Positions 8,929-56,738 of a stretch of 64,000 nucleotides of DNA are shown one piece after another. Location of the stretch: contig JAGXRN010000067.1 of assembly GCA_018335875.1 (NCBI GenBank), forward strand, positions 20,688-84,687, in the 5' to 3' direction. A program made the position numbers and the translations under genes. Below the pieces are notes generated by a model. It had not been told where the DNA came from. It searched no databases and saw only the letters and a program-made list of their open reading frames with translations. The stretch's first letter is position 1. Each line of letters opens with the position of its first letter. Source of the stretch: Dethiobacter sp. GTDB taxonomy: Bacteria > Bacillota > Dethiobacteria > Dethiobacterales > Dethiobacteraceae.

Positions 8929-9477
8929 GTGAAGCAGATTAACATCTTTGCCCTGGGAGATTCGATTACCTATGGCTTTCCTTACGGGCCACGTTATTCC
9001 TGGGTGGAAATGGCGTCTCAAAAACTTGAAATAAAAATAATTAACGGTGGCATCAATGGTGATACCACCGCTTTTATGCTGCAGAGGCTGCCTCAGGCTC
9101 TTTCCTGCCGCCCAAGCCACCTGCTTATATTAGGCGGAGCCAATGATGCTTACTGGGGCCAGCCTGTTTCCAGCGTAGGTTTAAACATAAAAGAAATATG
9201 CCAAAACTGCCGGCAGGAAGGGATTGAGGCCATTATCGGCCTGCCCACCCCGGTGGACGAGCCCGGGGTGGAAGTGCTCCTGTCGGAATATCGTTCATAT
9301 TTTCTTAACATTGCCGCTGCTTACAACAATGTTGTCATTCCCTTTCACCAGGCATTTTTTGACAGTGACGGCAGATTCAGGGCTGAACTGACCACCGATG
9401 GCTGCCATCCCAATATTGAAGGGTATGAGGCAATGGCAGAAGTTGCAGAGAAAGCTTTAATGGAAATACTGGCGTAA
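8929..9477 (+). CDS. SGNH/GDSL hydrolase
   Basis: FALGDSITYG (block I), GGANDA (block III) and DGCHPN (block V). Confidence 0.8.
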   Translation: MKQINIFALGDSITYGFPYGPRYSWVEMASQKLEIKIINGGINGDTTAFMLQRLPQALSCRPSHLLILGGANDAYWGQPVSSVGLNIKEICQNCRQEGIEAIIGLPTPVDEPGVEVLLSEYRSYFLNIAAAYNNVVIPFHQAFFDSDGRFRAELTTDGCHPNIEGYEAMAEVAEKALMEILA

Positions 9478-9547
9478 ACCAACACGGTGGCTGAATGAGA
9501 TTATTTATGTTATAATAAAAGAGAACATATATTCGGGGGGTGGTTTG

Positions 9548-10726
9548 ATGCGGCATATTATCCACGTGGACATGAATGCCTTTTTTGCATCGTGCCACCA
9601 GGCCGAAAACCCTGCATGGAAAGGCAAACAACTTCTGGTGGCAGGCGACCCCCAAAAGAGGCACGGTATTATACTCACCGCGTCTTATGAAGCCAGAAGG
9701 TGCGGTGTGAAAACAGCAATGGCTGTCTGGCAGGCCAGAAAGCTTTGCCCCCACGCAATCTTTGTCCCGCCTGACCACAGGCTTTACCTGGATTACTCAT
9801 TTAGGATACTGGAAATACTGCGCAGCTATACGCCCCTGGTGGAGCCTTTTTCTATTGATGAAGCATGGCTCGATGTATCAGGCTGTGAACGTTTATTGGG
9901 TACAGCTGCCGATATCGGCCGTGATTTACAGTTCCGTATTGAGCAGGAATTAAATATCCCCTCTTCAATCGGCATATCCTGTAACAAGTTTTTGGCCAAG
10001 ATGGCGTCGGAGCGCCGCAAACCCCGTGGCTTTACAGAAATTCGCCCGGAAGATGTGCCGGCGGTCCTCTGGCCCCTGCCGGTGGGAGAACTGGTGGGAG
10101 TGGGCAGGAAGATGGCTCCTAAGCTGGCGGAGATGGGAGTGGAGACTATCGGACAACTGGCGGCCATGCCTGTACGCTTGCTGGAGAGCCGCTTTGGTGT
10201 TATCGGCGAGGCACTGCATCGCCTGGCCCATGGCCGTGACGATTCCCCTGTGGATCCTGCAGCCCTCGATGATGTAAAGTCAGTAGGCCACTCAATAACG
10301 CTGCCTGCAGACATTAACAATCCTGAGGACGTGGCGGCGGTACTGCTTGATTTAAGTGAGCGTGTGGGCAGACGGCTGCGGCATGGCGATTATATGTCAA
10401 GAACAATTACTCTTACTGTTAAAGACCATAATTTTGTCACTACTACACGTTCCCGCACTCTAACTGAACCCACCAGTTTAACTGATGTAATTTATCAGAC
10501 AGCAAGGGAAATTTACCACAGAAGTTTTGAGCCCTGGAGAAAAGTAAGGCTGCTCGGCATCAGTGCTTCGAATCTGTCAAAGCCCGAAAACGGCCACCAA
10601 CTCCGCCTGTTTGACAGCGGAGGCGAGAGACTCAACCTCCTCACAAAGGCAGTGGACCGTGTCAGAGACCGCTTTGGTGAAGACGCCCTGATGCGGGCAA
10701 GGCTGTATGGAAAGGAAGAGGAATAA
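9548..10726 (+). CDS. dinB: DNA polymerase IV (Y-family)
   Basis: IIHVDMNAFFASC, SIDEAWLDV and the little-finger region. ATG at 9548 follows a G-rich RBS. Confidence 0.93.
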   Translation: MRHIIHVDMNAFFASCHQAENPAWKGKQLLVAGDPQKRHGIILTASYEARRCGVKTAMAVWQARKLCPHAIFVPPDHRLYLDYSFRILEILRSYTPLVEPFSIDEAWLDVSGCERLLGTAADIGRDLQFRIEQELNIPSSIGISCNKFLAKMASERRKPRGFTEIRPEDVPAVLWPLPVGELVGVGRKMAPKLAEMGVETIGQLAAMPVRLLESRFGVIGEALHRLAHGRDDSPVDPAALDDVKSVGHSITLPADINNPEDVAAVLLDLSERVGRRLRHGDYMSRTITLTVKDHNFVTTTRSRTLTEPTSLTDVIYQTAREIYHRSFEPWRKVRLLGISASNLSKPENGHQLRLFDSGGERLNLLTKAVDRVRDRFGEDALMRARLYGKEEE

Positions 10727-11292: not shown

Positions 11293-11544
11293 TCAGAAAA
11301 TATTAAGCTCAAGCGCCTCAGACAACATGTCCTTTTTAAAGCCTACTATAACAGAGTCATTAACTGTGGTCACCGGTGCTGCTTTTTGTCCTGATATAAG
11401 CCACATTTCCTCGAAGGCGTTTCGGTCTTCAATGATATTGTATTCTTTGAATTCAAAGTTATGCTGTGAAAGGAACTCTTTCACCTCAAGGCACGACATT
11501 CAGAACTTTCCCGCTGCATAAACCGTAATCACGGGTTGAGACAT
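11293..11544 (-). CDS. Glutaredoxin/NrdH-like selenoprotein candidate (UxxC), in-frame TGA at 11500-11502
   Basis: RBS GGAGAG is followed by an ATG at 11544. Translation reads MSQPVITVYAAGKF-TGA-MSCLEVKEFLSQHNFEFKEYNI...APVTTVNDSVIVGF. This is a thioredoxin fold with TGA exactly at the first position of the CxxC motif. The ORF track sees only the part 3' of the TGA. Confidence 0.7.
11466..11484 (-). promoter_or_regulatory. SECIS-like hairpin for the glutaredoxin-like gene
   Basis: On the mRNA the hairpin is GUGAAAG-AGUUC-CUUUCAC. It is a 7-bp perfect stem that begins 15 nt after UGA, with G at the second loop position. Confidence 0.45.
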
Positions 11545-11577: not shown

Positions 11578-11799
11578 CTACTTTTTGCGGGTTGGCCAAC
11601 CCAGCAAGTCAAGTAAAATTCAATAACGCGACACACCTTCAATTATAAGGAAAACGCCCAAGAGAACGGCAACTGCAGCACCAATATAACTGCCGGGAAA
11701 AACACGCAGCGCCCCCAAAGCGACGAGTATGCTGCCTGCTATGATGCGGATGGCCATATCAAGACGGCCGATATTGCGTTTTAAACGGAATAAATACAT
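11578..11799 (-). CDS. DUF2892 (YgaP-like TM domain) selenoprotein candidate, in-frame TGA at 11620-11622
   Basis: RBS GGGAGG lies 8 nt before the ATG at 11799. Translation reads MYLFRLKRNIGRLDMAIRIIAG...IIEGVSRY-TGA-ILLDLLGWPTRKK-TAG. The TGA sits where the family has its conserved Cys (..G.CPLY.LLG..T). Confidence 0.7.
11587..11605 (-). promoter_or_regulatory. SECIS-like hairpin for the DUF2892 gene
   Basis: On the mRNA the hairpin is GC-U(bulge)-GGGUU-GGCC-AACCC-GC. It begins 14 nt after UGA, has a loop starting GG and carries a bulged U. Confidence 0.55.
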
Positions 11800-11856
11800 A
11801 AAAAAACCTCCCGCTTTAGTGTTTGGCTGCAGGAGGAAATTATGCGCCATTTAAAA

Positions 11857-12111
11857 CTATAGCATACTTAGAATGGCATACTTTACCGCCTGAAGCACCA
11901 CCCAGGCCAGCAGGGGGGAAAGATCGACCGGTAAAGAGGTTTTTGGCAATATCTTTCTGAAAGGTGCCAGCAGCGGCTCTGTGCCTTCGTAAAGCAGGCG
12001 TATCAGGGGACTTTTAGGATTGTGGGGAAGCCAAGATAATATAACGCGCGCTATTATCAGCCAAATGAGTAAATCAAAAAATAGTGCAATAATATTTGGC
12101 AGTTGTGACAC
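11857..12111 (-). CDS. YggT-family membrane protein
   Basis: 84 aa with two TM segments. The motifs ARVILSWLP and PLLAPFRKILP are typical of YggT/Ycf19. GTG start follows GGGAAGGAG, and an extended -10 (TGATACAAT) lies upstream. Confidence 0.85.
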   Translation of the reverse strand: MSQLPNIIALFFDLLIWLIIARVILSWLPHNPKSPLIRLLYEGTEPLLAPFRKILPKTSLPVDLSPLLAWVVLQAVKYAILSML

Positions 12112-12201
12112 AAAACCAGCTCCTTCCCAATACTAAGATTTATTGTATCATAAGCATCCCGGTTTGGGTAGGTGCATGCGCTTGTTTTGTATTTTTGTAT
12201 T

Positions 12202-12480
12202 TTATTGTGCGTCCCACGGCCCCGGGCAGGATACAGCGCTTAAGCTCCTGTGGTTAGAGGAGAAATGATAAATATTTTCCACCTCAGCCTGGCCTGAGGC
12301 TATAAGACGGGTGACTTTCTCAAGCCTGTCTAGGGGGAAACGGGCAGCGATGCCGCACGATGAAGAGATAATACGAGGCACAGGAATGAGTGTAACCGGC
12401 TCCTGTAGTGAATTCATCAGTTTTTCAAAGCGCAGGGCGTGGGAAACCGATGGAAATGAGGCAACGCAATATGTTTCCAA
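12202..12480 (-). CDS. DUF3343 protein (putative Se/S carrier, YedF C-terminal-like)
   Basis: FPSVSHALRFEKLM...LIPVPRIISSSCGIAARF matches the DUF3343 signature (PxPRxISSxCGxAxRF). Confidence 0.65.
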   Translation of the reverse strand: METYCVASFPSVSHALRFEKLMNSLQEPVTLIPVPRIISSSCGIAARFPLDRLEKVTRLIASGQAEVENIYHFSSNHRSLSAVSCPGPWDAQ

Positions 12481-12496: not shown

Positions 12497-12721
12497 TTAT
12501 TTTTGTTTTATACTGATAATAAAATGAGTTTCCTTTTCCTCAACAGCAAAAGTATATCCGGAATTTTTCGCAAAGCGGCTGATATTCTCCACAGACACCT
12601 TGCTGTCGGATAAAATAGTCATACTGCCGGTGGATATTTTGCCCAGAAAGTCCTTTGTCCTGACAACGGGCTCAGGGCAGGATAGGCCGCGTACATCGAG
12701 GACTTCACTCTTAGACGTCAT
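12497..12721 (-). CDS. TusA/SirA-like sulfur(selenium)transferase (YedF N-terminal-like)
   Basis: LDVRGLSCPEPVVRTK carries the CPxP active-site motif. Length is 74 aa. It overlaps the yedE 3' end by 11 nt. Confidence 0.85.
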   Translation of the reverse strand: MTSKSEVLDVRGLSCPEPVVRTKDFLGKISTGSMTILSDSKVSVENISRFAKNSGYTFAVEEKETHFIISIKQK

Positions 12722-13802
12722 AGGAAACCTCTCCTTTTAAAGGAACTTTAATTTTGGGTAAAACAGCAGTGAAACCAATACTTAAAAGGAACATAAAACC
12801 AAGGACAACTCCCCATTTTCCATTGGGCGTGGCGCCTGCAGCACTCGAAGCCAGCCCGAAGTTGTGGGCGAATGCCGCACCCACGAGCATCCCCAGGAAA
12901 GACATGCCTGCATCGGCGTCACCCTCACCTGCCATCACTGTCTGACGCAGAGGGCACCCTCCAAGCAAGGTTGAACCCAGTCCCACCAAAGCCAGGCCCA
13001 GGAAATTCCAGATGCCGTCTGTGTGCGCCACGGGCTGTGAGCTAAAGCCAAGCCTGAAATAGCCAAAGCCAAGGTTAAAGATAAGGGCGGTGATAAAAAT
13101 AGCCAGTGAGCCGTAGAGAAGATGAGGGTCTTTTAAAAGAAACAGATCACGGAAGCAGCCTGCCTGGCAGAGCCTGCTGCGCTGAACAACTATTCCTATG
13201 AGCAGCCCTGCGGCAAGAGAGACAGCGAAAGGGGCTCGAAAAGAGCCGGGACCGCTTTCACTGAAAAATATAAATGCCGGTGCAACCACTGCCAGTAAAA
13301 CCAAGATAATTGCTACGGCAGGGATGGAGAGGCCGTTGGCACGGACCAGATTGACGGAGCGTCCAAGCGAAAATCCCCGCCGCAGGAAAAAGACGCCTGC
13401 AAAAATCCCGGCAATAAATCCAAAGAGTCCGACAAGAGCATTAAGGTCGCCTGCTGAGAGTCGAAGCAGCATGCGCAGCGGGCAGCCCAAAAAAACGAGT
13501 GCTCCAATCATGACAGTGAATCCCAGCAGGAAACGAAGCATAGGGGAGGAGCCGCCGCGGGCGCGAAACTCGCCTGTAAATAGAGATATCAGGAAGGAAC
13601 CAAGAATAAAGCCGGATATTTCAGGCCTCAAATATTGGACTGCTGCGGTACGGTGCAGTCCCAATCCACCCGCTATATCGCGGTAAAAGCATGCCACACA
13701 TACTCCCATGTTGGCAGGATTGCCAAATTTAACAAGCACTACGCCAAGCAATCCCAAAAAAACGCCGGAACAAACTATGAGCCGCCTTTCCAAACAGATC
13801 AC
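12711..13802 (-). CDS. yedE: YedE/YeeE-family membrane protein (selenium/thiosulfate-related transporter)
   Basis: 363-aa polytopic protein. It has GNPANMGVCVACFYRDIAG near the N-terminus and a second Cys motif (RLCQAGCFRD). Confidence 0.85.
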   Translation of the reverse strand: MICLERRLIVCSGVFLGLLGVVLVKFGNPANMGVCVACFYRDIAGGLGLHRTAAVQYLRPEISGFILGSFLISLFTGEFRARGGSSPMLRFLLGFTVMIGALVFLGCPLRMLLRLSAGDLNALVGLFGFIAGIFAGVFFLRRGFSLGRSVNLVRANGLSIPAVAIILVLLAVVAPAFIFFSESGPGSFRAPFAVSLAAGLLIGIVVQRSRLCQAGCFRDLFLLKDPHLLYGSLAIFITALIFNLGFGYFRLGFSSQPVAHTDGIWNFLGLALVGLGSTLLGGCPLRQTVMAGEGDADAGMSFLGMLVGAAFAHNFGLASSAAGATPNGKWGVVLGFMFLLSIGFTAVLPKIKVPLKGEVSYDV

Positions 13803-13896: not shown

Positions 13897-13977
13897 AAGA
13901 TAAGGAACAAAGATTCAAAAATTCATGCAGGAATTCTACCCTGCCATGTGAAAATACTCGCACAGGAGAGTGAAAAA

Positions 13978-14889
13978 ATGGAGTTTTATCAGCTTGAAGC
14001 TTTTGTAATGGTGGTATCTCAGCGCTCATTTTCACGGGCTGCCGATATGCTCTATCTCAGCCAACCTACTGTGAGCGCTCATGTGAAGAGTCTGGAAAAC
14101 ACGCTGGGCACTGCTTTGTTCGACCGCGGCAAAGGGGAGATAATGCTTACGCCGGCAGGAGAAACACTTTACCGTTATGCCTGTGATATGCTTGATTTGA
14201 GAAAAAAAACTATCTGCGAGATCAGTGAGAAAAAAGTTAGCGCTGAAGTCCTGACAATGGCAGCCTCGTCAGTGCCCTGCCAGTATTTTTTACCAGGCGC
14301 CATAGCACGGTTTGAAAAAAAAATCCCCACTGCCACCGTGTGCCTTAAACAGGAAAACTCCCGCCGTGTTTGCGAAAGTGTGTTTAACTATCAGTACCCG
14401 CTTGGAGTAGTCGGAGAAAGACACAATCTGCCGCGGCTGGCCTATGTTCCTTTGATGGAAGATATTTTGGTGGCGGCAATCCCCAATCGTGAAGAATATA
14501 AAAGTGTTCTGGCACGAAAAGAATTGTCGGTTGAAGATCTGACAGAATTCAGGCTTCTCCTGCGGGAGCCCGGTTCAGGCACACGCTCTTTGCTGGAAAA
14601 AGAACTGCAGCGCGTGGGGGTGGGCTTGGGCCGCTTTCGTATCAGCATTTATGAAAGCCAGGAGACTATTAAGCAGGCTGTTAGACAGGGCCTTGGCGTT
14701 ACAGTAATTTCGCGCTTTGTGGTGGAAGACTATGAACAGTTCGGCTTATTGTCAACCCGTCCCTTAAGAGGGCTTGAGCTTGCGCGCCGGTTTTCTCTTG
14801 TCTACCATGACAAGCGTGTGCTATCCAATGCGGGCAGGGAACTGCGCCGGTTTTTGATATCTTTTTTTACAGCTGAGGAGGAGAAATAA
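13978..14889 (+). CDS. LysR-family transcriptional regulator
   Basis: MEFYQLEAFVMVVSQRSFSRAADMLYLSQPTVSAHVKSLE is an HTH. The ATG at 13978 follows GGAGAG. Confidence 0.9.
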   Translation: MEFYQLEAFVMVVSQRSFSRAADMLYLSQPTVSAHVKSLENTLGTALFDRGKGEIMLTPAGETLYRYACDMLDLRKKTICEISEKKVSAEVLTMAASSVPCQYFLPGAIARFEKKIPTATVCLKQENSRRVCESVFNYQYPLGVVGERHNLPRLAYVPLMEDILVAAIPNREEYKSVLARKELSVEDLTEFRLLLREPGSGTRSLLEKELQRVGVGLGRFRISIYESQETIKQAVRQGLGVTVISRFVVEDYEQFGLLSTRPLRGLELARRFSLVYHDKRVLSNAGRELRRFLISFFTAEEEK

Positions 14890-16046
14890 TGCGCGAAATC
14901 TATGCCGACCATGCAGCTACCACTTTCCCCCGCCCGCCTGCAGTGGCTGCTGCTATGACAGCTTACCTCAATAACATCGGCTGCAGTCCCGGGCGGGGAG
15001 GCTATAAAAGGTCTCTCGATGCCGCCAGGCTTGTCTATGAATCCAGGTCCCGCCTGGCGGAGTTGTTTAATGCCGCCCGCCCGGAGCAGGTGATATTTAC
15101 TCCCAGCGTTACCTACTCGCTAAACCTGTTGCTGAAAGGCCTGCTGCGCACTGGCGATCATGTGTTGGTTTCTTCTGTAGAACACAACTCAGTTGTCCGC
15201 CCCCTGTCACGCCTGGCGGGCGAACTTGAGCTCCAAGTTGAATTCCTCCAGTGCAACCCGGACTCATCCCTCGACCCGCTACAGGTGAAGAAAAAACTGC
15301 GGCCCAGTACAAGACTTGTGATTCTTACCCACGCCTCAAATGTCACCGGGGCGCTGCTGCCGGTCTATGAAACAGGGGAAATACTGGCTGGGACTGACAC
15401 TTTCTATGCCGTTGATGCGGCACAAACTGCCGGTAGTGAAGAAGTTGACTTTGCTGCTCTGCGCTGTGACTACCTGGCCTTTACCGGCCATAAAGGATTG
15501 CTTGGCCCGCCGGGAATCGGGGGCATGTGCATCAGTGAACGTGCAGCCGAGATTACAGAGCCTTTGGTAGAAGGGGGGACAGGCAGCCGCTCCGAACAGG
15601 AGCGCCAACCCGGCTTTCTGCCGGATAAATTTGAGAGCGGCACACAAAACGTGCCTGGAATTGCCGGTTTGAATGCCGGAGTTTTGACTGTACTTGATGC
15701 TGGAACAGAAGCTTTGGGCAGGCAAAAACGAGAGCTGACAGAGCGTTTCCGGCAGGGGCTTGCGCAAATCCCCGGCATCAAAGTTTACGGACCCACTGAC
15801 GCCGCCGCGACAACGGCTACAATATCTGTCAGCATAGAAGGTATGGACAGCGGAGATCTCAGCTTTATACTCGATCAGGCATACGGTATCATGACACGCT
15901 CCGGGCTCCACTGCGCTCCTTACGCCCACCGCACCTTGGGCACATTCCCCGCAGGTACGCTTCGTTTCTCATTCGGTTATGGCAGCACCCAGCTGGACGT
16001 GACAGAAATTCTTGCTGCACTAAAGGAAATAACAACCGCCAGGTAA
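14889..16046 (+). CDS. Class-V aminotransferase: cysteine desulfurase / selenocysteine lyase family
   Basis: THASNVTG, the PLP lysine in FTGHKGLLGPPGIG, and the active-site Cys in RSGLHCAP. It is translationally coupled to the LysR gene (TAATG). Confidence 0.85.
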   Translation: MREIYADHAATTFPRPPAVAAAMTAYLNNIGCSPGRGGYKRSLDAARLVYESRSRLAELFNAARPEQVIFTPSVTYSLNLLLKGLLRTGDHVLVSSVEHNSVVRPLSRLAGELELQVEFLQCNPDSSLDPLQVKKKLRPSTRLVILTHASNVTGALLPVYETGEILAGTDTFYAVDAAQTAGSEEVDFAALRCDYLAFTGHKGLLGPPGIGGMCISERAAEITEPLVEGGTGSRSEQERQPGFLPDKFESGTQNVPGIAGLNAGVLTVLDAGTEALGRQKRELTERFRQGLAQIPGIKVYGPTDAAATTATISVSIEGMDSGDLSFILDQAYGIMTRSGLHCAPYAHRTLGTFPAGTLRFSFGYGSTQLDVTEILAALKEITTAR

Positions 16047-16863: not shown

Positions 16864-16914
16864 ACCTATTCACTGCGCTCTGAAAAGGAAAATATTAATA
16901 GCAGGATATTAAGA

Positions 16915-17067
16915 ATTTGGGAGAGACCGTAATGATTAGCGGTCGCCGAAGGATAAATTCAGCTGTGCTGAAAAATCTCTCAGGTCTCAAGGGCAGGGCA
17001 GAATTTACCTCCATAGTACATTGTAAATAGTGTGCAATGGTGAACTCTGGAACTGTCTTTTGTTTTG
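16915..17067 (+). promoter_or_regulatory. Single glycine-riboswitch-like aptamer plus degenerate terminator (duplicate of aptamer 2 of the downstream tandem)
   Basis: GGGAGAGACC...CGCCGAAGGA...CTCTCAGGT...GGCAG core. By eye it is about 75-80% identical to 17394-17540, including the expression platform. Confidence 0.6.
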
Positions 17068-17284: not shown

Positions 17285-17536
17285 ACCGGATGAGGATTGT
17301 GGGAGAGACCTTTAAGTATACACTTAAGGGCACCGAAGGGGCAAAGTCGCTGACTGAAACTCTCAGGTAAAAGTACCGCATTCTGACGGAGCTCTGGAGA
17401 GACCGTGCTGCTTAGCGGTCACCGAAGGAGAAATTCAGCATGCTGAAGAATCTCTCAGGTCAAAGGACAGAGAAGAATTTACCGCTAAAGTACATATTAT
17501 TGGTGTGCAGAGGTAAATTCTGAGACTGTCTTTTTG
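17285..17536 (+). promoter_or_regulatory. Tandem glycine riboswitch with terminator expression platform
   Basis: Aptamer 1 reads GGGAGAGACC..CACCGAAGGGGCAA..CTCTCAGGTAAAAGTAC. Aptamer 2 reads CTGGAGAGACC..CACCGAAGGAG..CTCTCAGGTCAAAGGACAG. A long imperfect terminator follows (GACAGAGAAGAATTTACC / GGTAAATTCTGAGACTGTC + TTTTT), and its 5' arm overlaps the 3' end of aptamer 2. Confidence 0.85.
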
Positions 17537-21744: not shown

Positions 21745-21970
21745 ATGAATCTGGCGGGAGAGGCCCAATCTTGGGACACCGAAGGAGAAACCTTTATGGC
21801 ATGGCAGTCTGGAGGGAAACTCTCAGGTATAAGTACCGGCAGGGGACGCGTCCCTGGAGAGAGCCCGCTTAACGTGGGACACCAAAGGGGTAATGCCCGG
21901 ATATCCGGGTTAATCTCTCAGGTAAAAAGGACAGGGGAAACGGCCGGTTGGTTGTTTTCCCTGTTTTTTT
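21745..21970 (+). promoter_or_regulatory. Tandem glycine riboswitch upstream of gcvT
   Basis: Aptamer 1 reads GGCGGGAGAGGCC..CACCGAAGGAG..CTCTCAGGTATAAGTAC. Aptamer 2 reads CTGGAGAGAGCC..CACCAAAGGGGTAA..CTCTCAGGTAAAAAGGACAG. The terminator is ACAGGGGAAA / TTTTCCCTGT + T7. Confidence 0.85.
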
Positions 21971-53585: not shown

Positions 53586-53833
53586 TTTAAAAACAAAAAA
53601 CCCTTTTCACTCCATAGAGACGAAAAGGGTAATCCGCGGTACCACTCTAATTGGCATAGTATGCCCACTTAAGCCCGTAACGAGGGAATGCGGCCAGGTC
53701 TACTCGTTTCCTTTCGGCTGGCACTCCGGGGTGAGTTTCAGTCAGGATCTAGGGCCGCCTCACACCTACCCGGCGGCTCTCTGTTTCCTAATGCCGGACT
53801 TACTGTCCCCGTCATCGTTTTAAATATTAATTA
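53586..53833 (-). promoter_or_regulatory. T-box riboswitch leader, CUC (Leu) specifier
   Basis: All elements are on the minus strand. There is an AGAGAG box. The specifier loop reads GAAA-CUC-A, with CUC at 53733-53735. The T-box sequence is AATTAGAGTGGTACCGCGG (53634-53652). The terminator is ACCCTTTTC / GAAAAGGGT + T6 (53595-53630). Confidence 0.85.
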
Positions 53834-54996: not shown

Positions 54997-55749
54997 TCAC
55001 GATAGTTTTGGGCCAAAAGCTTTATCCGCAAAAGACGGGTAGATATTGGCCACTTCCTGGCGCACAGCGCCCCGCAGGAGTTTCAATTCATCCTCAGTCG
55101 GCGCCTTTGTCTCAAAACATTGGCCGCGGTGGAATGACAGCTCAAAGCCGGTATTAGCCTGAACCTCTTCTGGTGTGTAGCCGGGGTGGACGGAGAGGAG
55201 TTCAAGGAAGCCTGTTTCACTGTTTCTTACCATCACAGCAAGGGGCGTAATCACAATATGCAGTCCTCCTGGGCGGTAGACGGAGGGAGGCGGGGAGGCG
55301 CTGCTGGTGATGAAATCAACTTTTTCCACAAAAGTCCTCACTGTATGATCGGTCTTAAAAAGGATAACTTTTTTTACCATGTAATACAGCATCGATGATC
55401 CGGCGCCGCCGGGCAGTCTGACACTGGGTTTTTTATAGTCTCCAATGGCATGCAGGTTGATGTTGCCGAGGCGGTCAATTTGAGCGCCGCTTAGAAAAAA
55501 GTAATCAAAACGGCCCCTCTGGGCAGCGTGAAAAAATTCGAAGCTCCCTTCTGAGAAAGGCCACCAGTCTTTGCTGCCAAGGATATAAACGTCGCTTTGT
55601 GGCGCGTGACTTGCTTTTGCCAGAATACCAGCGGTGGCGGGGATGGGTGAGAAGGTGCCTACGGCCACAACCTCACCGTTTTTTATTTCCCTGGAGATAA
55701 TAGTTGCCATTAATTCTTCTGTTGTATAAGTACGCCCGGCGTCTGTCAA
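54997..55749 (-). CDS. CoA-transferase subunit B (glutaconate/3-oxoacid CoA-transferase family)
   Basis: FLSGAQIDRLGNINL and RLPGGAGS motifs. It overlaps the A-subunit stop. Confidence 0.85.
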   Translation of the reverse strand: MTDAGRTYTTEELMATIISREIKNGEVVAVGTFSPIPATAGILAKASHAPQSDVYILGSKDWWPFSEGSFEFFHAAQRGRFDYFFLSGAQIDRLGNINLHAIGDYKKPSVRLPGGAGSSMLYYMVKKVILFKTDHTVRTFVEKVDFITSSASPPPSVYRPGGLHIVITPLAVMVRNSETGFLELLSVHPGYTPEEVQANTGFELSFHRGQCFETKAPTEDELKLLRGAVRQEVANIYPSFADKAFGPKLS

Positions 55750-56576
55750 GAAAAGTCACCTCCGTTTTGCAAGCGGCGGCAGAATTCTTCCAGATAAGTG
55801 GAAAATGCTGAAGCATCCTTAGCCGCGCGCAGGTATGCCTGCATCTCTGCCATATTGAGCGGGTATATACTGCCGCAGGCGGTGGGGTAGGCGCCACCGG
55901 GCAAATGTACTACTGCATCCACATGGACGCGGCTGACAAAGTTGCCGCGCTGAGTGGCCTTTAGTTCTTTTGAGTCCACTATTTCTTCGGCTGACACTAT
56001 TACTTTTTGTGAAGACTTTGCTAATAGTGCATCGTCGGTGCCGCTGTTTAGAATACAGTTGCCGAACTTATCCGCTCTGAACGCATGTATTATGGTAAAA
56101 TCAGGGCTTAGCGCAGGCACTACCAAAATGTCATCGTCGCCAAAGGGATTGCGGATTATTTTAAAATCCGGCCTGACACGCGGGTAGTCGGTACCTATCA
56201 CCCCGCGAACCGGCATAAAGGGAATTCCCATCGCTCCAGCCTGGAGCGCAGAAAGTAAGCCGGGTCAGGTATGGTCCAGTGTGGCAATACTGCCGTCCTG
56301 CGCCCTGCGCCTGAAATTAGGGGCCATACCAAGTTCCTCAAAACCGACCTGGGCAAATTCTATGATACGTGCAGCGCCGGCACCAATCAGCATGTCAGCC
56401 ACAAATCCACCTGTGGGAGATACCACCAGGTGAAAATCTTTCTTCCCAAGTAAAATCAGATTGGCTGCCAGGGAAACCGCGTTCATGGACATGGGGTCTC
56501 CACCCAAGCCCAGTATCGATCCGTCCCGGACAAGGGAAATAGCTTCTTGTGGAGACATAATTTTTTCAGCAGGCAA
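55746..56576 (-). CDS. CoA-transferase subunit A interrupted by one in-frame TGA (56265-56267): selenocysteine candidate or pseudogene
   Basis: ORFs 56265..56576 and 55746..56231 are in the same frame, separated only by TGA plus 11 sense codons. The joined sequence reads ...SIATLDHT-TGA-PGLLSALQAGAMGIPFMPVRGVIGTDY..., colinear with family-I CoA-transferase alpha subunits. The hairpin CGCUCCA-GGC-UGGAGCG (56232-56248) starts 16 nt after the UGA. Confidence 0.6.
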
Positions 56577-56738
56577 TCAGTACACCCCCTTGTTTTCATA
56601 CTATTTTGACATAAAATTAAGAAGTCCTGCAAGTTAAAAAAAATAGCAATGTTGTATACATTGTCAAAATTTGCTGTAGTAAACAGGAATTGGGCTTAGT
56701 TCTGTAGAAAAGCTATTTGATTAGAATAATAGAAGCAG

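Follow-up and report, generated by a model that had tools for sequence, protein, structure and literature searches.

A group of bacterial selenoprotein genes, among them those encoding FdhA, GrdA/B and selenocysteine (Sec)-containing glutaredoxin, carry the signal for recoding within their own reading frames. These genes have an in-frame UGA codon, a stem-loop downstream of it that lies inside the open reading frame (ORF) and acts as an intragenic selenocysteine insertion sequence (SECIS), and homologues with Cys at the UGA position. G occurs in the first two positions of the loop, the spacing is 16–37 nucleotides (nt), and the genes are misannotated as truncated ORFs. Here we analyse a 64,000-nt stretch of DNA from Dethiobacter sp. 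(contig JAGXRN010000067.1; hereafter called the window), in which the gene for the alpha subunit of a coenzyme A (CoA)-transferase-like protein shares each of these features. We think it likely that the locus is an intact two-gene operon encoding a heteromer of CoA-transferase fold, in which UGA codon 104 of the alpha gene is recoded to Sec. Unlike the bacterial selenoproteins catalogued so far, the protein belongs to family PF01144; it has no UxxC or CxxU redox motif, and its fold is acyl-CoA-binding and not of the thioredoxin type.

The enzymes most closely related to this protein include both CoA-transferases and proteins that have the fold without the activity. GctAB of Acidaminococcus fermentans (1POI), SCOT and AtoDA share with the locus the Pfam domain, the two subunits and overall colinearity. 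The locus departs from GctAB and family I in two respects: the beta Glu54 nucleophile is missing, and the Gln of the alpha 'SQD' motif is replaced by Sec. IpdAB of M. tuberculosis and Rhodococcus (6CO6, 6CO9, 6COJ, 6CON) is an alpha/beta heteromer of GctAB fold; its beta subunit lacks the catalytic Glu, and its alpha subunit supplies the functional residue, from the column where our protein would have Sec. IpdAB carries out a retro-Claisen ring hydrolysis (PMC6678751). However, our alpha subunit has low identity to IpdA and has Sec or Cys in place of its Glu, and its chemistry therefore need not match that of IpdAB. The hosts differ too, those of our locus being anaerobic or soil Bacillota and Rokuibacteriota, and the steroid ring-degradation (KstR2-type) context is absent around the window pair, other loci being variable. 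AibA/AibB, the 3-methylglutaconyl-CoA decarboxylase of Myxococcus xanthus (5MZW-5N03), likewise has a CoA-transferase fold and is not a transferase. In AibB the thiol of Cys56 takes the place of the catalytic Glu (PMC7756340). That thiol sits on the beta subunit, where the window protein has Ile or Leu (AibB Cys56 aligning with Ile56), whereas at the alpha column AibA has Gly and the window protein has Sec. AibB Glu72 corresponds to E66 of the window beta subunit, a residue that is unconserved in the Sec/Cys clade.

The alpha-subunit gene (GctA-like) occupies positions 55746..56576 on the minus strand. Translation from 56576 to 55746 gives 277 codons, corresponding to 276 residues and a terminal stop, with one internal stop in the context ...IATLDHT-TGA-PGLLSALQAGAMGIPFMPVRG... 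This in-frame UGA (56265..56267, minus strand) is the proposed Sec104 in the motif D-H-T-U-P-G. We regard the gene as complete on the basis of its translation, its PF01144 match, its colinear Cys-type homologues and the selection acting on both its halves. The start codon is TTG and the product begins MPAEK, as in the orthologues; a Shine-Dalgarno-like AAGGGGG, read from the sequence and presumably functional, lies 6–7 nt upstream (56584..56591, minus strand). The beta-subunit gene (GctB-like, 250 residues; 54997..55749, minus strand) also has a TTG start, which overlaps the alpha stop by 4 nt (TTGA), and its product is without the canonical catalytic Glu. Alpha and beta each match the Pfam CoA_trans family PF01144 at 62 bits (cut-off 23; E = 6.7e-17 for alpha). 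An initial annotation of this DNA had described two same-frame ORFs colinear with one alpha subunit, no further lesion in the A gene and a B gene overlapping it by 4 nt. The single 276-residue frame with one internal TGA bears this out, and the coordinates all hold.

The internal TGA is conserved. Scans of genome and metagenome collections recovered 72 loci (45 distinct sequences) in which this column holds an in-frame stop, and the stop is TGA in every one. Protein identity of these TGA forms ranges from about 36% up to 76%, and the loci come from at least four phyla: Bacillota including Dethiobacter, Rokuibacteriota, Binatia and Thermodesulfobacteriota-like metagenome-assembled genomes (MAGs), together with unassigned contigs. 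The genome collection, scanned with the closer alignment A2 as query, contributed TGA forms from 5 Bacillota, 12 Rokuibacteriota or Binatia and 2 Thermodesulfobacteriota-like genomes; the metagenome collection contributed more than 50 loci. Among the best 120 database homologues, about 45 are C-terminal halves (ORFs of 155–181 residues, 50–76% identity) that start right after the TGA, and the full-length matches reach only 35–47% identity. The same split, into 103 and 161–175 residues, is seen in the isolate Dethiobacter alkaliphilus AHT1 and in one MAG from Bacillota, and the surrounding genes match those of the window, with a HAD hydrolase and an adenine deaminase upstream. The DNA of both reads CAT ACC TGA CCG GG..., followed by a hairpin identical to that of the window. 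With U written for the stop, the peptide predicted to span the TGA would read ...VLDHT-U-PGLLAALQAGAMGIPFMPVR.

Both halves of the alpha gene are maintained by purifying selection. When the window gene was compared with eight Bacillota orthologues, the ratio of nonsynonymous to synonymous differences per site (pN/pS) was 0.25–0.42 for the N-terminal half and 0.20–0.34 for the C-terminal half, and pS was 0.66–0.82, so that synonymous sites are near saturation. A comparison of selection on the two halves had been proposed in the initial annotation as a check on the gene; both halves proved intact and constrained (pN/pS 0.20–0.42 overall).

The residue opposite the TGA in nearer full-length relatives is Cys. 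These Cys-type proteins, from Paenibacillus, Alphaproteobacteria, Dormibacterota and others, carry the motif [DE]-x-[AST]-C-[PG]; more distant subfamilies have Glu, Gly or His there. Sec and Cys forms are intermingled in a rough neighbour-joining tree, which is the usual pattern in real selenoprotein families. The alignment of orthologues that the initial annotation had called for thus gives Cys in relatives and TGA in 72 loci. What it had named as the contrary pattern, a non-Cys column with no hairpin, is the opposite of what we found, with Cys in relatives and a hairpin largely specific to the TGA forms. From these sequence comparisons we consider it very likely that the internal UGA is decoded as Sec.

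The hairpin is of the bacterial SECIS (bSECIS) type and lies within the coding sequence. It reads CGCUCCA-GGC-UGGAGCG and occupies 56232..56248 (minus strand), exactly where the initial annotation had placed it, 16 nt after the UGA. The stem begins 16 nt 3' of the UGA and the loop lies about 22–23 nt 3' of it. The conserved core comprises 6 base pairs (bp) closed by an apical loop A-G-G-C-N (A-G-G-C-U in the window), the stem being 6–7 bp, and the isolated window hairpin has an energy of -11.1 kcal/mol. The bSECIS model specifies a loop of 3–9 nt with the pattern N1-G-[G/U]-N-N2, a stem of 4–16 bp, 16–37 nt from UGA to loop and a minimum free energy of -7.5 kcal/mol or lower (PMC13188914). The window hairpin fits this model on every point. 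In two divergent Sec-type loci (L145 and L024) the hairpins have energies of only -6.9 and -6.6 kcal/mol, short of the -7.5 threshold.

Covariation supports the helix. In an alignment of 39 distinct Sec-type sequences, columns 32–37 pair with columns 43–48, and 87% of all helix cells are paired. At pair 32-48, 22 sequences have G-C and 12 have C-G; in this switch an Ala-to-Gly replacement (GCG to GGG) is compensated at a synonymous site (GCG to GCC). At pair 34-46, C-G is found in 35 sequences, with A-U and G-U in 2 each. Both pairs show double changes that are compensatory. The observed covariation score was reached in none of 500 column shuffles, shifting the partner columns destroys the pairing, and RNAalifold independently predicts the identical helix.

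A helix of this kind could arise from the peptide it encodes, and the Cys-type genes serve as a control for the conserved peptide LQAG. Sec-type genes form a mean of 5.92 of the 6 pairs, with all six present in 34 of 37 distinct sequences; Cys-type genes, including those with the same local peptide, form a mean of 3.56 pairs, with all six in 1 of 16. When all synonymous codon sets were enumerated, only 1.0% of those encoding ALQAGA, and 2.1% of those encoding GLQAGA, formed the full helix. Moreover, the 18-nt core is identical in all ten of ten Bacillota sequences despite saturated synonymous divergence elsewhere. The hairpin is kept by selection on the RNA, beyond the encoded peptide.

We can place Sec104 by comparison with solved structures. 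Those closest to the alpha subunit are AibA (5MZW, 1.8e-28), which is the best match, IpdA (6CO6/6COJ, 1e-20) and GctA (1POI, 6e-19). The best match to the beta subunit is GctB (1POI_B, 8.8e-24), with AibB second (about 5e-15 to 1e-14) and IpdB also found. NCBIfam holds no specific model, its sole match being pcaI_scoA, far below cut-off. The alpha alignment is ungapped from the Sec column to a conserved xPF(M/L)P motif 15 residues on, and it pairs Sec104 with the Gln of the GctA 'SQD' motif and with IpdA Glu105. At the Glu105 column 6CO6 has Glu and 6COJ has Ala. Crowe et al. 2018 reportedly found IpdAB to be without the CoA-transferase beta Glu and to use Glu105 of IpdA as its catalytic base. 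Gln99 of SCOT would fall at the same column as Sec104 and the GctA Gln. This Gln99 is among the residues that line the bound CoA (PMC12817287). The canonical alpha Gln of the CoA site is thus absent from the window protein, which would have Sec104 instead. The initial annotation knew of no catalytic Cys at this position in the family, and we add a correction: the column is a conserved Cys in the nearest relatives and aligns with both the IpdA Glu and the GctA Gln.

The beta subunit has changed as well. The GctB segment IIV-E54-SG corresponds to VYI-L-GS in the window, and every Sec- and Cys-type beta subunit has a hydrophobic residue at the Glu54 site, in the pattern [ILMF]-[GN]-[SH]; a neighbouring subfamily in the same search has the canonical YESG. 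Since this Glu is absent, the clade fails the defining test for a ping-pong CoA-transferase. The assignment to family I made in the initial annotation therefore stands for the fold and falls for the mechanism, the defining catalytic Glu being missing from beta. One candidate for a relocated catalytic Glu, E66 of the window beta subunit (in 'PFSEG'), was rejected, as the residue is Gly, Gln or Asn in Rokuibacteriota.

We propose the following mechanism. As a ribosome pauses at the UGA, the hairpin within the A-L-Q-A-G-A codons would act as a bacterial SECIS and recruit SelB with Sec-tRNA(Sec), so that recoding would yield a single alpha chain of 276 residues; both SelB dependence and the insertion of selenium itself are steps that we infer. 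Sec104 would then sit at the active-site column, which in family I transferases holds the Gln beside CoA and faces the CoA thioester, and in IpdAB holds the catalytic Glu105. The enzyme is probably not a ping-pong CoA-transferase, because its beta subunit has lost the Glu that forms the enzyme-CoA thioester. Instead, an acyl-CoA would be bound, and the selenolate (the thiolate in Cys forms) would act as nucleophile or base on the acyl moiety. Our best estimate, drawn by analogy, is that the protein is more likely an acyl-CoA hydrolase, lyase, decarboxylase or isomerase that would work much as IpdAB or AibAB do and have Sec or Cys as a catalytic residue. Judged from the alignments, a role for Sec in the active site is on balance probable. 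A bolder version, which we hold to be doubtful, has Sec104 replace the lost beta Glu as a covalent nucleophile. The target of Sec104 would be either the acyl-CoA thioester or an electrophilic carbon in the acyl chain, and the attack would give an acyl- or alkyl-selenoenzyme intermediate.

Several observations weigh against this account of a recoded, catalytic Sec104. The fold of the window sequence is unexceptional when judged singly, since a 53-nt segment has z = -0.78 and an equal or better fold is given by 43 of 200 shuffles; the case for the hairpin therefore rests on covariation and the Cys-type control. The hairpin overlaps the conserved peptide LQAG. One or two Cys-type genes from Paenibacillus can also form it: in L084 the six pairs are all present, and in L085 pairing is possible if two G-U wobbles are allowed. 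A scan of the 64-kb window for tRNA genes found none, hence no tRNA-Sec. With regard to catalysis, the role of Sec104 is drawn solely from alignment to IpdA and GctA. Gene context is not common across phyla, and an attempt to infer the substrate from gene neighbourhoods gave none.

The Paenibacillus gene with the complete helix, L084 4001-4921 (Paenibacillus sp. UNCCL117), is worth describing in its own right. At about codon 108 it has a Cys codon, TGC, and it retains GCG CTC CAG GCG GGA GCG with the full 6-bp helix. The helix could be a fossil SECIS that outlived a recent change from Sec to Cys, or GC-rich codon usage could have produced it incidentally.

Of the alternatives, the one that survives best accepts that Sec is inserted and gives it another task. 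Sec104 could be redox-active or structural, either in a selenosulfide with the Cys of the PTAC motif or in a regulatory or protective mixed Se-S bond with CoA; or the enzyme could still be an ordinary CoA-transferase that uses another carboxylate. Most known selenoproteins are redox proteins (PMC13188914), the Cys in GAxPTAC is nearly invariant, and the conserved Glu of the beta motif GSxEF (E70 in the window) could in principle be a relocated nucleophile. However, the alpha subunit has no CxxU or UxxC motif, the Sec column is the very position mutated in IpdA, and the canonical beta Glu is missing clade-wide. Moreover, a family III CoA-transferase is encoded next to the pair in several loci, which would make a second transferase redundant. 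We consider this alternative unlikely.

A second alternative is that the gene is truly split: the UGA would end a polypeptide of 103 residues, translation would reinitiate at an ATG 12 codons on, and the hairpin would serve translational coupling. Bacillota do carry such an ATG, with GGAG before it, 3' of the hairpin, and gene callers annotate a 161-residue ORF from it. The 11 codons between the TGA and this Met nevertheless behave as protein-coding sequence. The peptide they encode, P-G-L-L-A/S-A/G-L-Q-A-G-A, is conserved and its codons vary synonymously, and in Rokuibacteriota the linker is followed by no start codon, the ATG position being CAG or GCG there and in locus L006. Because of these two observations we conclude that ribosomes read the linker in frame, which excludes reinitiation on a split gene. 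A split would also leave the Cys codon aligned to the terminator unexplained, and the Cys-type relatives are single colinear chains. We rate a split gene as very improbable.

The UGA might also be read through without Sec, by near-cognate suppression with a Trp, Cys or Arg tRNA or under a reassigned code. UGA-C is a leaky stop context, and C follows the UGA in 34 of 39 distinct sequences. But 14 of the 48 long ORFs in the window end at a TGA, which points to a standard genetic code and to recoding at this site only. The covarying hairpin at SECIS spacing, the Cys homologues and the selenium-related genes of the window (see below) all favour Sec over such suppression, to which we assign only a very small probability. 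Finally, a recent nonsense mutation that inactivates the alpha subunit in the window strain, which the initial annotation had rated an equally good explanation, would look like a single lesion without frameshift, and several assemblies do annotate the gene as two fragments. It is refuted by the recurrence of the TGA, at 36–76% protein identity, in an isolate and in dozens of loci, from MAGs and metagenomes, that span four or more phyla; these could hardly all be assembly artefacts of independent projects. It is refuted also by purifying selection on both halves, with no further lesions, while synonymous sites are saturated. It retains next to no probability.

Nothing about the proposed recoding mechanism is unusual; what is new is the host family, together with the chemistry it implies. 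A 2026 review that lists 119 prokaryotic selenoprotein families or subfamilies with domain identifiers includes no CoA-transferase and no PF01144 member, neither BSepDB (111 families) nor the deep-Sep paper mentions a CoA-transferase selenoprotein, and a search of literature full text returned nothing relevant linking selenoproteins with CoA-transferases. The remark in the initial annotation that Sec here would make an unexpected selenoprotein family thus agrees with its absence from the 119-family catalogue and from BSepDB. If our reading is right, it adds a family that current catalogues and annotation pipelines have missed. All TGA-form database entries that we encountered are split into about 103 and 160 residues, including those of cultured D. 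alkaliphilus AHT1, and the annotation of dozens of genomes would be corrected.

Such a protein would place Sec in an acyl-CoA-binding, non-thioredoxin fold from which the usual Glu nucleophile is gone. This leads to a testable hypothesis, that a chalcogen nucleophile or base has turned the CoA-transferase fold to a new use, and the Sec and Cys forms provide a natural series for asking what selenium contributes outside redox chemistry. Should the covalent version hold, the superfamily would gain a new catalytic mechanism, and the enzyme would be one of the rare selenoenzymes that work outside redox chemistry, here on acyl thioesters, with a wide distribution in Rokuibacteriota and Dethiobacteria. 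Members of the family are abundant in Rokuibacteriota, a soil phylum that is poorly understood.

Two other candidate selenoprotein genes lie in the window, both about 45 kb from the CoA-transferase locus. The initial annotation had pointed to them; both exist, with hairpins that begin 15 and 17 nt 3' of the TGA. The first is a glutaredoxin-family gene with U-M-S-C, a UxxC motif (11293..11544, minus strand; TGA 11500..11502). Its hairpin has 7 bp and the loop AGUUC and is the one that begins at 15 nt. This Sec-glutaredoxin candidate is a member of a known selenoprotein family and supports the use of Sec by the organism. The second is a YgaP-like_TM (DUF2892) gene reading ...EGVSRY-U-ILLDLLGW... 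(11578..11799, minus strand; TGA 11620..11622), in which the TGA falls at the conserved Cys of the family. If the U is taken as Cys, the product matches Pfam PF11127 at 3e-14, and its hairpin, GGGUU-GGCC-AACCC, begins at 17 nt. The family is missing from the 2026 list of 119 and may be a second uncatalogued selenoprotein family.

Close to these two genes is a selenium/sulfur-handling cluster on the minus strand, made up of a Se_S_carrier gene (12480..12202), a TusA gene (12721..12497) and a YedE-like Sulf_transp gene (13802..12711). Next to the cluster are a LysR regulator gene (13948..14889) and, at 14889..16046, a gene for a class-V aminotransferase of the cysteine desulfurase / selenocysteine lyase type. 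Together, the Sec candidates and the selenium-handling cluster provide good, indirect support for Sec use. A candidate selenoprotein gene was also seen near an A-B pair elsewhere. UGSC is a known selenoprotein family, and about 5 kb from the Sec-type pair of locus L168 two adjacent short UGSC-family ORFs (11592-12140, minus strand) are probably another gene split by a TGA.

The neighbourhoods of the A-B pair are varied. In the window it lies near genes for a ROK kinase, a HAD hydrolase and an adenine deaminase. The Dethiobacter, Rokuibacteriota and Thermodesulfobacteriota-like loci have the A-B pair alone, in variable contexts. A family III CoA-transferase gene adjoins the pair in three Cys-type loci and one Sec-type locus, which suggests that another enzyme makes the CoA thioester and that the A-B pair transforms it. 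The Sec-type locus L170 has a beta-oxidation-like setting, with acyl-CoA ligases, a thiolase and DUF35 protein, an acyl-CoA dehydrogenase and an enoyl-CoA hydratase. A recurring set consisting of a luciferase-like monooxygenase, A, B, the family III CoA-transferase and DinB_2 is present at L084, L085 and L087 (Cys-type) and at L170 (Sec-type, 9424-10605). The same set holds a protein of about 200 residues without a Pfam match, and it offers a lead to the pathway.

A scan of the window at Rfam gathering thresholds found no RNA family at the CoA-transferase locus; elsewhere in the window it found only glycine riboswitches and a T-box. The T-box leader (53613-53824, minus strand) lies 5' of a gene resembling 2-isopropylmalate or homocitrate synthase. 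The four glycine riboswitch aptamers (16908-16999, 17290-17388, 21745-21848 and 21852-21936, all on the plus strand) precede genes for DUF5058 and M20 peptidase proteins and a gene for the glycine-cleavage T protein.

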